Below, piece by piece: positions 54,114 through 59,601 of a stretch of DNA of 64,000 nt (positions are counted from its first letter, which is position 1; every line of letters begins with the position of its first letter). The notes beneath the pieces were generated by a model that did no database searches, was not told where the DNA came from, and saw nothing but the letters and a program-made list of their open reading frames with translations. Where the stretch lies: NCBI RefSeq assembly GCF_054482595.1, contig NZ_CM137008.1; one strand, given 5' to 3'. Both the position numbers and the translations under genes were made by a program.

Positions 54114-55523
54114 ATGCAACGAGGGATAGTCTGGGTAGTCGATGACGATAGTTCCATCCGTTGGGTGCTTGAACGTGCGCTCGCTGGAGCGGGTTTAACC
54201 TGTACGACATTTGAGAACGGCGCGGAGGTACTGGAGGCGCTGGCGAGCAAAACGCCGGATGTGCTGCTTTCAGATATCCGTATGCCGGGAATGGACGGGC
54301 TGGCACTGCTCAAGCAGATTAAACAGCGCCATCCGATGCTTCCGGTCATCATTATGACCGCACATTCCGATCTGGATGCTGCCGTCAGCGCCTATCAACA
54401 AGGGGCGTTTGATTATCTGCCCAAACCGTTTGATATCGACGAAGCCGTGGCGCTGGTTGAGCGCGCCATCAGCCATTATCAGGAACAGCAGCAGCCGCGT
54501 AATATTCAGCTTAACGGCCCAACGACCGATATCATCGGCGAAGCGCCAGCCATGCAGGACGTGTTCCGTATTATCGGTCGGCTTTCGCGTTCTTCTATTA
54601 GCGTGCTGATTAACGGCGAATCCGGCACCGGTAAAGAACTGGTCGCTCATGCCCTGCATCGCCACAGTCCGCGCGCCAAAGCGCCGTTTATCGCGCTGAA
54701 TATGGCAGCTATCCCAAAAGATTTGATCGAATCAGAACTGTTTGGCCACGAGAAAGGCGCGTTTACTGGCGCGAATACCATTCGTCAGGGGCGTTTTGAA
54801 CAGGCCGATGGCGGTACATTATTCCTCGACGAAATTGGTGATATGCCGCTGGATGTGCAGACGCGTTTGCTGCGCGTGCTGGCAGACGGTCAGTTTTACC
54901 GCGTTGGCGGCTATGCGCCGGTGAAAGTGGATGTGCGGATTATCGCTGCCACTCACCAGAATCTCGAACAGCGAGTGCAGGAAGGTAAGTTCCGTGAGGA
55001 TCTGTTCCACCGCCTGAACGTTATCCGCGTTCATCTGCCGCCGCTGCGCGAACGTCGGGAAGATATTCCCCGTCTGGCGCGCCATTTTTTACAGGTTGCC
55101 GCGCGCGAACTGGGCGTAGAAGCGAAGTTACTGCATCCGGAAACCGAAGCTGCTCTGACGCGTCTGGCGTGGCCAGGCAACGTGCGCCAGCTGGAAAACA
55201 CCTGCCGCTGGCTAACGGTGATGGCCGCCGGGCAGGAAGTGTTGATTCAGGATTTGCCCGGCGAACTGTTTGAATCAACGGTTGCGGAGAGTACTTCGCA
55301 AATGCAACCGGACAGTTGGGCGACGCTTCTTGCGCAGTGGGCAGACAGAGCGCTGCGTTCCGGTCATCAAAATCTGCTTTCCGAAGCGCAGCCAGAGCTG
55401 GAGCGGACGTTACTGACGACCGCGTTGCGACATACGCAGGGGCATAAACAGGAAGCGGCGCGGCTACTCGGCTGGGGCCGCAACACTCTGACGCGTAAGT
55501 TAAAAGAGCTGGGGATGGAGTGA
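54114..55523 (+). CDS. glnG: Nitrogen regulator NtrC (sigma-54 enhancer-binding protein)
   Basis: 469 aa from [19 protein letters not shown]...; receiver, AAA+ ([14 protein letters not shown]) and C-terminal HTH; ORF opens 20 codons upstream. Confidence 0.95.
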
Positions 55524-55634
55524 TTCACGGCGTGTGTGTAAAGATTGATTATTGAGCGCAAATTGCTGGTATTTTGCGCTTTACTGTTCCGATAAGTTCA
55601 GTATGATCTTGCCCGGAAAACGGGGAGAGTCATT

Positions 55635-55745
55635 ATGCTGGAATCAATAATTAATCTGGTATCGAGTGGCGCAGTTGACAGCCACACACCGCAAACTGCC
55701 GTTGCTGCCGTGCTGTGTGCCGCAATGATTGGGCTGTTTAGTTGA
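55635..55745 (+). CDS. yshB: Small membrane protein (36 aa)
   Basis: GGGGAGAG RBS then ATG; product MLESIINLVSSGAVDSHTPQTAVAAVLCAAMIGLFS; below ORF-track size cutoff. Confidence 0.7.
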   Translation: MLESIINLVSSGAVDSHTPQTAVAAVLCAAMIGLFS

Positions 55746-55779
55746 GTTTCAGATTGCTGATGAAGTGCTCTTTGTTCAT

Positions 55780-55868
55780 GCCGGATGCGGCGTGAACGCC
55801 TTATCCGGCCTACAAAAGCAATATTTTCAACAGGTTTTGTAGGCCTGATAAGCGTAGCGCATCAGGCA
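55780..55868. repeat. REP/BIME pair
   Basis: GCCGGATGCGGCGTGAACGCCTTATCCGGCCTACA and TGTAGGCCTGATAAGCGTAGCGCATCAGGCA. Confidence 0.8.
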
Positions 55869-55934
55869 ATCTTGTTCTCAGCACATTGATGGCGCTTTCG
55901 TTTTCTACTTTGTAAACGAAGCGCCATTCACTAT

Positions 55935-57308
55935 TTAAATCACCCGTGAGAACTGCTGCATCCGCGCTTTCTGGCGCAGATAGGTATCAAAGCACATGCA
56001 AATGTTGCGGATCAGCAAGCGACCTTTCGCCGTCACCTGTATTCCCTTCTCATCCACATCCACCAGCCCATCTTTTGCTAACGGGGCGAGCAGCTTGAGA
56101 TCTTCCGCAAAGTAATCAGCGAAGTGCAAATCCCACTGTTTCTCAATAGGGGCGTAATCCAGACGGAAGTTGCAGATGAGCGACTTAATCACATCGCGGC
56201 GAATACAGTCATCACGCGTTAGCGCAATACCACGCCACAGCGCATTGCCTTGTTCATCCACTTGCTGATAGTACTGCTTCAACTCTTTCTGGTTCTGCGC
56301 GTAGCAGTCGCCAATCATGCTGATGGCGGAAACGCCCATCCCCAGCAGATCGGTATCGCCCTGAGTGGTGTAGCCCTGGAAGTTACGATGCAGCACGCCT
56401 TCACGCTGGGCCACCGCCAGCTCGTCATCCGGACGGGCAAAGTGATCCATACCGATAAACTGATAGCCCGATTGCGTCAGGAAGGCGATGGTTTCCTGCA
56501 GGATATCGAGTTTTTGCTGCGGACTCGGCAGGTCAGCATCTTTGATTTTGCGCTGAGCAGCAAAAATGGTCGGCAGATGCGCGTAGTTAAAGACACTCAG
56601 ACGATCGGGGTTCAGCTCCGCCACACGTTTCAGGGTAAAGGCGAAACTCTCCGGCGTCTGTTTCGGCAGGCCGTAAATCAGGTCGATGTTGGTGGAGGTA
56701 AAACCAATCTCACGCGCATGGTTAAGCAGTGCAAAGATGAACTCTTCATCCTGCTCGCGGTTAACCAGACGTTGCACTTCTTTGTTGAAGTCCTGCACGC
56801 CCATGCTCAGGCGATTAAAGCCTTCGGCGCGTAAATGATCGAGTACATCCAGTTCGATTTCCCGCGGATCGACTTCGATCGAAATCTCCGCATCGGCATT
56901 GAACTGGAAGTTTTCGCGCAGCAGCTTCATCAGGCGGCTGATTTGCGCTTTATTCAGATACGTCGGCGTTCCGCCGCCCCAGTGCAATTGGCTGACGTGA
57001 CGCCCGGCGAACAGCGGTGCACGATGGACGATTTCTTGCTCCAGCGCGTCCAGATACTGATCGGCCTTGTGCTGCTGGCGAGTAACAATCTTATTGCAAC
57101 CGCAGAAGTAACAAAGCTTATGGCAGAACGGGATATGTACGTAGAGAGATAATGGACGCTCAGGATAGCGCGCCACGGCTTGTAAAAACGCCTGTTCGCC
57201 GAAGTCTTCTGAAAACTCCAGCGCGGTCGGGTACGAGGTGTATCGTGGCCCGGAATAGTTATATTTCTGGATCAGGGCCAGATCCCAGTCGATTTGCTGT
57301 ACAGACAT
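55935..57308 (-). CDS. hemN: Oxygen-independent coproporphyrinogen III oxidase (radical SAM)
   Basis: 457 aa from MSVQQIDWDLALIQKYNYSGPRYTSYPTA...; CxxxCxxC motif (CHKLCYFCGC). Confidence 0.95.
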   Translation of the reverse strand: MSVQQIDWDLALIQKYNYSGPRYTSYPTALEFSEDFGEQAFLQAVARYPERPLSLYVHIPFCHKLCYFCGCNKIVTRQQHKADQYLDALEQEIVHRAPLFAGRHVSQLHWGGGTPTYLNKAQISRLMKLLRENFQFNADAEISIEVDPREIELDVLDHLRAEGFNRLSMGVQDFNKEVQRLVNREQDEEFIFALLNHAREIGFTSTNIDLIYGLPKQTPESFAFTLKRVAELNPDRLSVFNYAHLPTIFAAQRKIKDADLPSPQQKLDILQETIAFLTQSGYQFIGMDHFARPDDELAVAQREGVLHRNFQGYTTQGDTDLLGMGVSAISMIGDCYAQNQKELKQYYQQVDEQGNALWRGIALTRDDCIRRDVIKSLICNFRLDYAPIEKQWDLHFADYFAEDLKLLAPLAKDGLVDVDEKGIQVTAKGRLLIRNICMCFDTYLRQKARMQQFSRVI

Positions 57309-57496
57309 GCTCACTCCTTCCGATGGCGTCTCTGGCGGCTACGGCGTACCGGCGGATGCCCGTTTCGGGTCATCAGCCGGTTGCGCAGCCACTTTTGTCG
57401 CCGCGACAACCGCTGTAGTTTAACGAATAACCACACCAGATAACATATAACCGGAAGGGTTATCAGCAGAACGGGAAGGCCCACGGCGGCAATCCG

Positions 57497-58006
57497 TTAG
57501 TTGCCCCGCAGCAGACGCATCATGTCTTCTTGCTTCTCGTCTTCTTCCTCTTCTTCGTCATCGTCATAAGAGAGGCCGAGTTTCTGCATCAACTCATCAA
57601 TACGATCCAGTTTAGCATCCACCCAGGATTGCTCTTCGGCGCTCAGGGTTTCGCCTGCTTCCAGACGTTCCAGCAGCGCATCCAGACGCTCATCCGTTTC
57701 CAGTAATTCCAACTCCGCCTGCGGTGAAAGCATAGGTTTCTCACTCTTCGGTTTGTGCTGTTTGGTGACTTTTTCAGTCACGCCCAATGGAATAGGGGTT
57801 TTACTGCCAATACGTGGATCTTTTGGTGCGTTCTGGCCTTTGCTGCCTGACGTGGTGTTTCCGCCCGCTGCGCGGCTGCCCGGCGCATGACCACGACGTT
57901 TTTTCTGACGCTTGCGATCACGAGCTTCCTGATCCAGCTCCTCGCGTGTTTTTCGACGCGCTTTTGCATGACCTTTGCTGCGTGAGTTTGAAGATGATGG
58001 TTTCAT
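57497..58006 (-). CDS. yihI: Der GTPase-activating protein
   Basis: 169 aa from [26 protein letters not shown]...; highly basic N-terminus, acidic C-terminus; ORF opens 21 codons upstream. Confidence 0.88.
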
Positions 58007-58075
58007 AATGGTTCGTCTTTTAGCCGTTTTATTCAGTATAGATTTGCGGCGGAATCTAACAGAAAGCAAGCAAAG

Positions 58076-58320
58076 AAAAAAGGCGACAGATTACTCTGTC
58101 GCCTTTTTTCCTGACTCATAACCCTTAACGGGTCTTACAATCCTTGCAGGCCGCCAACACACCCTGTTTTTCCTTTAGCCGGAACAATCCGTGTTGATTC
58201 CATTTCCGTTTAATTACGTCTCCGGACGTTTGTCTTCCTGACAATCCTCTGTCTTCGCCTCCTGGCGCTCCTGACCCTCATCCTGAGTCATTGTTCCTGT
58301 TAGCGTCCTCGCTCTATGGG
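58076..58320 (-). ncRNA. csrC: CsrC small RNA (CsrA-sequestering)
   Basis: Minus strand reads AUAGAGCGAGGACGCUAACAGGAACAAUGACUCAGGAUGAGGGUCAGGAGCGCCAGGAGG...; more than ten GGA motifs; ends in hairpin AAGGCGACAGAGUAAUCUGUCGCCUUUUUU; no ORF. Confidence 0.85.
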
Positions 58321-59345: not shown

Positions 59346-59454
59346 TAAAAAACGCCCCAGTCATTACTGACTGGGGCGGCTAAAATATTCAGCCAAATCC
59401 GATTACGTGAAGTAAAAGGTCTGAAAGATAGAACATCTTACCTCTGTACCCTAC
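59346..59454 (-). ncRNA. spf: Spot 42 small RNA
   Basis: Minus strand reads GUAGGGUACAGAGGUAAGAUGUUCUAUCUUUCAGACCUUUUACUUCACGUAAUCGGAUUUGGCUGAAUAUUUUAGCCGCCCCAGUCAGUAAUGACUGGGGCGUUUUUUA with terminal hairpin plus U-tract. Confidence 0.9.
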
Positions 59455-59601
59455 GCGACTAACTTTACTCTTTTTTGTTCAGTTCAGAAAGCACTTTTTG
59501 TAATTTTTTTTCAGTTGTTGCATAGGAATTTCTAATAGCCATCACAAAACGTGACAGCTTATGTTGCTTACTTACGAAAAAAGGGCATGTTCAGGCGAAT
59601 C

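Follow-up and report, generated by a model that had tools for sequence, protein, structure and literature searches.

The locus analysed here raises the question of whether a 36-codon open reading frame (ORF) located between glnG, a nitrogen-regulator gene, and hemN is a genuine gene, and what its product could do in the cell. In the window, which is the whole stretch of 64,000 nucleotides of DNA that was analysed, glnG ends at 55523 and hemN occupies 55935-57308 on the minus strand, leaving a gap of 411 nt. The ORF lies on the plus strand of this gap at 55635-55745, with an ATG start at 55635 and a TGA stop at 55743-55745, and its 36 codons encode MLESIINLVSSGAVDSHTPQTAVAAVLCAAMIGLFS. Start, stop and peptide are exactly those of the original prediction, which had placed the ORF in the glnG-hemN gap and had named it yshB.

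The name was confirmed by several annotation sources. The RefSeq record NZ_CP025916.1 carries a CDS, 'yshB: YshB family small membrane protein', at locus positions 1636-1746, corresponding to 55635-55745 of the window, and in the curated K-12 record yshB is b4686, located between glnG and hemN and labelled 'uncharacterized protein YshB'. An exact-sequence lookup of the peptide returned an identical UniProt sequence (RepID=YSHB_ECOLI), whose cluster members carry the name 'YshB family small membrane protein'. The NCBIfam equivalog NF033841 (small_YshB) was matched with 72.1 bits against a cutoff of 34 (E = 2.4e-20), residues 1-36 being aligned to profile positions 1-40 of 40; none of the Pfam families matched YshB. 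When the segment 55500-55950 was compared by megablast with 5,426 complete E. coli genomes, RefSeq yshB annotation was found under the match. The promoter and ORF (55575-55750) were present in a single copy, with at least 95% identity, in 5425 of these 5426 genomes, and this single-copy locus was labelled yshB throughout the ranking of complete E. coli genomes.

Taken with the purifying selection described below, the segment 55635-55745 is almost certainly yshB, a gene that is transcribed on its own and translated efficiently, and whose product is a hydrophobic YshB-family protein of 36 residues. This is not a new discovery, as yshB was annotated in E. coli K-12 years ago and has its own NCBIfam model and several papers. 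The locus serves instead as a positive control, showing that a genuine gene of fewer than 50 codons can be recognised from raw sequence. The original prediction had also stated that the ORF falls below the size cutoff of the ORF track, which is true at the default of 60 aa, and that it would be missed by most gene callers. The latter claim stood in part: an exhaustive phmmer search of 1.84 billion representative proteins returned only 15 relatives, mostly frameshifted or extended miscalls, but NCBI's PGAP does call yshB, via a dedicated HMM.

Conservation and coding evidence

The length of the ORF alone is not beyond chance, since 67% of shuffled versions of the 411-nt gap contained an ATG-started ORF of at least 36 codons. 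What does rise above chance is the conservation of the Shine-Dalgarno (SD) sequence, the promoter, the frame and the codon-position pattern across 58 species. Because so few relatives had been called as proteins, species-representative genomes were scanned for the conserved core instead, using the exact pattern HTPQTAx[AVT]A[VI]. The scan recovered 58 loci, a lower bound rather than a census, as expected species such as Klebsiella pneumoniae are missing from the list. These loci belong to at least 14 genera (Escherichia, Salmonella, Citrobacter, Klebsiella, Kosakonia, Enterobacter, Pluralibacter, Trabulsiella, Phytobacter, Leclercia, Izhakiella, Erwinia, Brenneria and Serratia), all of them Enterobacterales, the only order in which these searches found the YshB family.

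An intact ATG-started ORF of 35-41 codons was found at every locus (L059 is cut by the locus edge), the sense frame was open in 58/58, and a G-rich SD stood at the same distance from the ATG in all 57 loci that include upstream sequence. The gene order was conserved as well, with glnG upstream on the same strand in 56 of the 58 loci (the other two are truncated) and hemN convergent downstream in 57. In 53 of these 56 loci glnG and yshB are separated by 100-116 nt, most often by 108-113 nt, and the yshB-hemN gap ranged from 29 to 607 nt.

Within the ORF, the entropies of codon positions 1, 2 and 3 over the 58 loci were 0.45, 0.18 and 1.16, respectively. Mean pairwise pS was 0.55 against a pN of 0.12, giving a pN/pS of about 0.2; between E. 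coli and Salmonella diarizonae there were 18.5 synonymous and 2.5 nonsynonymous differences. All indels were multiples of three and mapped to the linker that precedes the invariant HTPQTA motif, where the homologs of Kosakonia, Brenneria and Serratia carry an insertion of 4-5 residues restricted to this linker.

Two explanations other than a coding yshB were weighed against these data. A chance open frame in non-coding DNA, with the conservation coming from a promoter, terminator or RNA element, would agree with the non-significant ORF length and with the nucleotide conservation of the 110-nt upstream region (75% mean column identity in 31 genomes). It is contradicted by the excess of third-position over second-position entropy, the low pN/pS, the in-frame indels and the preservation of the ATG, SD spacing and stop in 58 species; in addition, the transcript matched no Rfam family, and the intact protein has been seen by top-down MS (PMC12529367). 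This explanation retains practically no probability and is effectively refuted already. The other candidate is an antisense gene whose wobble coincides with the wobble positions of yshB. Here the entropy pattern alone cannot discriminate, since third positions are common to both frames, and the antisense frame (-,1) is stop-free across the body of yshB in 49 of the 58 species. Its openness is explained by composition, because a stop in this frame needs a Tyr codon, or a His or Gln codon that follows a codon ending in T, whereas YshB lacks Tyr altogether and contains a single His (H17) and a single Gln (Q20). The frame is interrupted in 9 species, its first start varies in position and in type (GTG, ATG, TTG or none, with 7 species lacking a start), no SD precedes the start, ORF lengths run from 6 to 181 codons, and neither RefSeq nor the curated K-12 record annotates an antisense gene. 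An antisense gene is thus exceedingly improbable and was rejected for its lack of a conserved start and of an SD, its scattered lengths and the compositional origin of its openness.

Signals upstream and downstream of yshB

The strong ribosome-binding site that had been claimed for yshB is indeed there. The SD sequence GGGGAGAG lies on the plus strand at 55622-55629, with GGAG 7 nt before the ATG, and its best duplex with the 16S anti-SD reaches -8.1 kcal/mol. The promoter, also on the plus strand, spans 55580-55607 and is composed of a TTTACT -35 box, a 16-nt spacer and a TATGAT -10 box, this being the sole sigma-70-like site in 55400-56000. In an alignment of 31 genomes extending from Escherichia to Serratia and Erwinia, the CTTTAC and GTAnnAT columns are invariant. 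The yshB ORF, its SD and the sigma-70 promoter are under purifying selection at a fixed position about 110 nt past glnG.

Other conserved stretches were seen in the glnG-yshB spacer. Positions 55537-55582 are conserved about as strongly as the CDS and begin with a near-invariant block, TGTAAAGATT, at 55537-55546. A conserved GC-rich stretch, CTTGCCCGG, occupies 55608-55616, between the -10 box and the likely transcription start, and resembles a GC-rich discriminator.

Between the glnG stop and the -35 box, which it abuts, there is an inverted repeat on the plus strand (GAGCGCAAA-N10-TTTGCGCTT, 55554-55581) that forms a 9-bp stem in the centroid fold. Across 31 species it is paired in 87.5% of cells, just 1 pair changes on both sides, and the TATTTTG T-run and the AAA of this region are near-invariant. 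As there is essentially no compensatory change, covariation cannot separate an RNA role from a DNA role, and the repeat, maintained through conservation of its sequence, is described here as a putative element, either a weak glnG terminator hairpin or a DNA-level, protein-binding site. A hairpin in the 5' UTR (CCCG-GAAAA-CGGG, 55612-55624), which overlaps the SD and looked conserved by eye, was not supported: folded species by species, its mean energy was -4.7 kcal/mol against -4.5 kcal/mol for shuffles, and its 5' arm may precede the transcription start.

On the 3' side, a pair of mutually inverted REP elements (55780-55813 and 55839-55867) is located ahead of the hairpin next to hemN. The pair folds strongly (z = -8.1), and a sub-threshold match to the REP-derived Rfam family naRNA4 was found at 55774-55810. 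With the REP pair included, a query matched each E. coli genome at 39 places (median); without it, the match was to 1 place. In other genera the yshB-hemN gap is only 29-100 nt; the REP pair is an Escherichia-specific insertion outside the conserved gene. A GC-rich hairpin at 55889-55927, between the convergent stops of yshB and hemN, is a putative shared terminator. One strong hairpin (-17 to -54 kcal/mol) was found in the yshB-hemN spacer of each of 13 other species, with a sequence that differs between genera. A consensus terminator scan made no call at 55889-55927, where the hairpin lacks a clean T-run.

Published evidence on YshB

Hemm and co-workers are said to have found yshB by comparative genomics combined with ribosome-binding-site models and to have confirmed it with a chromosomal SPA tag. 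In the study of Bomjan and co-workers, yshB was reportedly induced inside macrophages and its mutant attenuated in mice, and the work of Li and co-workers from 2014 is said to be a ribosome-profiling study. Ribosome profiling, epitope tagging and membrane fractionation, which had been proposed as checks on the prediction, have largely been done in published work.

In PMC10470546 and in Miyakoshi et al., the discovery of yshB is credited to Hemm et al. (2008), and Bomjan et al. (2019) is cited for the part that YshB plays in the virulence of Salmonella and in its replication inside cells. Steinberg et al., citing Li et al. (2014), give more than 11,000 predicted YshB copies per cell in stationary phase (PMC7549839), and C-terminally His-tagged YshB was undetectable in that study (PMC7549839). 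The top-down MS detection mentioned above concerned the native protein, which has no tryptic sites, and was reported in 2025 (PMC12529367). Akiyama and co-workers placed YshB among the class I substrates of RseP, an intramembrane site-2 protease of the inner membrane, with positive results in four assays that employed HA-MBP and 3xFLAG tags in vivo, chromosomal RseP and purified enzyme, all resting on N-terminally tagged constructs (PMC10470546). Cleavage by RseP requires a membrane-embedded segment, and an additional, RseP-independent periplasmic cleavage of YshB was also observed (PMC10470546).

Protein features and probable membrane association

The hydrophobic nature predicted for the peptide was evident, with a GRAVY of 1.12 and C-terminal 15-residue windows of up to 2.4. 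A search of the PDB gave no relative at E <= 1. The AF2 model, built from a 36-sequence alignment, has helices at residues 2-13 and 17-35 with a mean pLDDT of 74.7, that is, only moderate confidence. The second helix comprises 19 residues with a pLDDT of about 80; the maximum over Kyte-Doolittle windows of 19 residues is only 1.53, and the strongest hydrophobic stretch, A22-F35, is only about 14 residues long. Helix 1, with a hydrophobic moment of 0.49, is amphipathic, and helix 2, with a moment of 0.06, is uniformly hydrophobic.

The invariant residues of YshB are M1, H17, T18, P19, Q20, T21, A22, A25, L27 and C28; the invariance of H17-A22, A25, L27 and C28 suggests a specific interface. E. 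coli YshB has neither Lys nor Arg, its only charged or ionisable residues being E3, D15 and H17, and so the positive-inside rule gives no topology for the protein. The absence of Lys and Arg is unusual in a membrane protein.

A likely architecture can be drawn from these features. Residues 2-13 would form a short amphipathic helix at the membrane interface, followed by the variable linker and by the invariant H17-T-P-Q-T-A22, which would open the 19-residue helix 17-35, predicted to be long enough for the inner membrane, with the invariant Cys28 placed mid-helix. Insertion would be post-translational, in the style of tail-anchored proteins, because only one residue separates the end of the hydrophobic helix from the stop, so that the helix would not be out of the ribosome before termination; small and tail-anchored membrane proteins provide the basis for this expectation (compare PMC7549839). 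The topology would be N-in/C-out, which fits the cleavage of N-terminally tagged forms by RseP.

Possible function

YshB would bind a larger inner-membrane protein and modulate it through the invariant polar motif and Cys28. A constitutive-type promoter of its own, together with turnover by RseP, would determine how much YshB is present, and in Salmonella its activity would support replication inside host cells. The partner-modulation mechanism is proposed by analogy with MgrB, AcrZ, MgtS and CydX, and we consider it about equally probable that it applies to YshB or that it does not. YshB is under strong purifying selection and is reportedly both abundant and needed by Salmonella for full virulence; the papers cited here by accession report no binding partner. 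Mutagenesis could be aimed at the HTPQTA motif, at Cys28, at the complete lack of basic residues and at the promoter, whose boxes are invariant.

Three other readings of the protein or its transcript have to be set against this proposal. YshB might be peripheral or soluble and rely on its amphipathic N-terminal helix to work at the surface of the membrane, an unlikely arrangement that would suit the lack of positive charges, the short strongly hydrophobic core and the high hydrophobic moment of helix 1, as well as the MS paper's setting YshB apart from 'the small membrane proteins' (PMC12529367). RseP, however, cuts within membrane-embedded segments and cut YshB fusions in all four assays (PMC10470546), the predicted helix 17-35 has the 19 residues and the low moment typical of a TM helix, and the NCBI curators' family name is 'small membrane protein'. 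A tie to the neighbouring genes is quite unlikely too. Rather than a generic small membrane protein, YshB could then be, for example, a membrane anchor or modulator that serves HemN or the handling of haem, or it could provide NtrB/NtrC with an input from the membrane, a reading drawn from the near-universal glnG-yshB-hemN order, the invariant His17 and Cys28 and the dedicated invariant promoter. HemN is the oxygen-independent coproporphyrinogen oxidase. If true, such a tie would supply the molecular function that YshB has lacked since 2008, and could explain the intramacrophage phenotype of Salmonella.

It is very improbable that the yshB transcript is mainly, or additionally, a base-pairing regulatory RNA (a dual-function transcript), with a position like that of the sRNA NrsZ. 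A short independent transcript directly past glnG is what this reading expects, and Bomjan and co-workers reportedly met yshB during work on Salmonella small RNAs. The positional correspondence with NrsZ, which in Pseudomonas aeruginosa lies downstream of ntrBC and is likewise an independent short transcript directly after ntrC/glnG, was pointed out by Miyakoshi et al. NrsZ, however, is non-coding and RpoN/NtrC-dependent, whereas yshB encodes a protein from a sigma-70-type promoter and shows no induction under nitrogen limitation (Miyakoshi et al.). Moreover, no Rfam family matched the yshB transcript of E. coli or Salmonella or either strand of the ORF, synonymous sites are near saturation between genera (pS 0.55-0.9), leaving little room for a conserved seed within the ORF, and the 5' UTR folds no better than shuffles.

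Comparison with known small proteins

YshB was compared with described systems. The YshB of K-12 and Salmonella (NF033841) has the same length, the same glnG-hemN position and the same HTPQTA..LC core as the protein studied here, and nothing was found to differ. The small modulators MgrB (of PhoQ), AcrZ (of AcrB), MgtS (of MgtA), CydX (of CydAB) and MgtR (of MgtC) resemble YshB in having fewer than 50 aa, one predicted TM helix and a stand-alone gene. MgrB and CydX also share its susceptibility to RseP (PMC10470546), and MgtR is linked to virulence, as YshB is in Salmonella. None of the five has a sequence relationship to YshB; the likeness serves as a working analogy and no family membership is claimed. 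YshB differs from these modulators in lacking Lys and Arg, in having its predicted TM helix at the extreme C-terminus and in having no known partner. With YohP and other small membrane proteins inserted post-translationally by an SRP/YidC route (PMC7549839), YshB has in common that it is too short for co-translational targeting, as its hydrophobic segment runs to the C-terminus.

A type I toxin of the Hok, Ldr, Ibs or TisB kind was also considered and rejected, as no RNA family that could be an antisense antitoxin was found on either strand of the ORF, there is no conserved antisense ORF or signal, and the peptide has no basic residues. In E. coli genomes yshB is single-copy rather than multi-copy. 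The high natural copy number of YshB reported in PMC7549839 also argues against toxicity.

Other small genes in the vicinity

An unannotated ORF of 57 codons was found on the minus strand at 57311-57484, between the yihI stop at 57497 and the hemN ATG at 57308. It starts with GTG, and its product, MGLPVLLITLPVICYLVWLFVKLQRLSRRQKWLRNRLMTRNGHPPVRRSRQRRHRKE, carries a TM-like segment and, after it, a tail that is very basic. The sampled RefSeq E. coli records and the curated K-12 record do not annotate it, and in public sources it is called only sporadically, as 'hypothetical protein'; no family model matched it and no literature on it was found.

Among 54 Enterobacteriaceae loci, the product shows 70-96% amino acid identity. 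The frame is open over 57 codons at the homologous position in 52/54 loci, and one 55-codon and one 75-codon variant were also seen. Every species has a candidate start, which is either a GTG/ATG at codon 1 or a TTG in the same frame, three codons further upstream. In 53 of the 54 loci only 2-3 nt separate the stop from the ATG of hemN (2 nt in the window). The invariant C-terminal RKE coincides with the SD of hemN, which is located inside the last codons, a layout that predicts coupled translation of the two frames. In all 53 ungapped loci this is the only open frame of the six, and its pN/pS of 0.53 compares with 1.2-1.3 off frame. Synonymous sites in codons 5-36 are unusually conserved (entropy 0.26), indicating that a nucleotide-level constraint overlaps the ORF. 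It may encode a translationally coupled small membrane protein or be a leader ORF for hemN.

Two small RNA genes expected in this neighbourhood were found on the minus strand above their Rfam gathering scores, CsrC at 58064-58317 and Spot 42 at 59346-59464.
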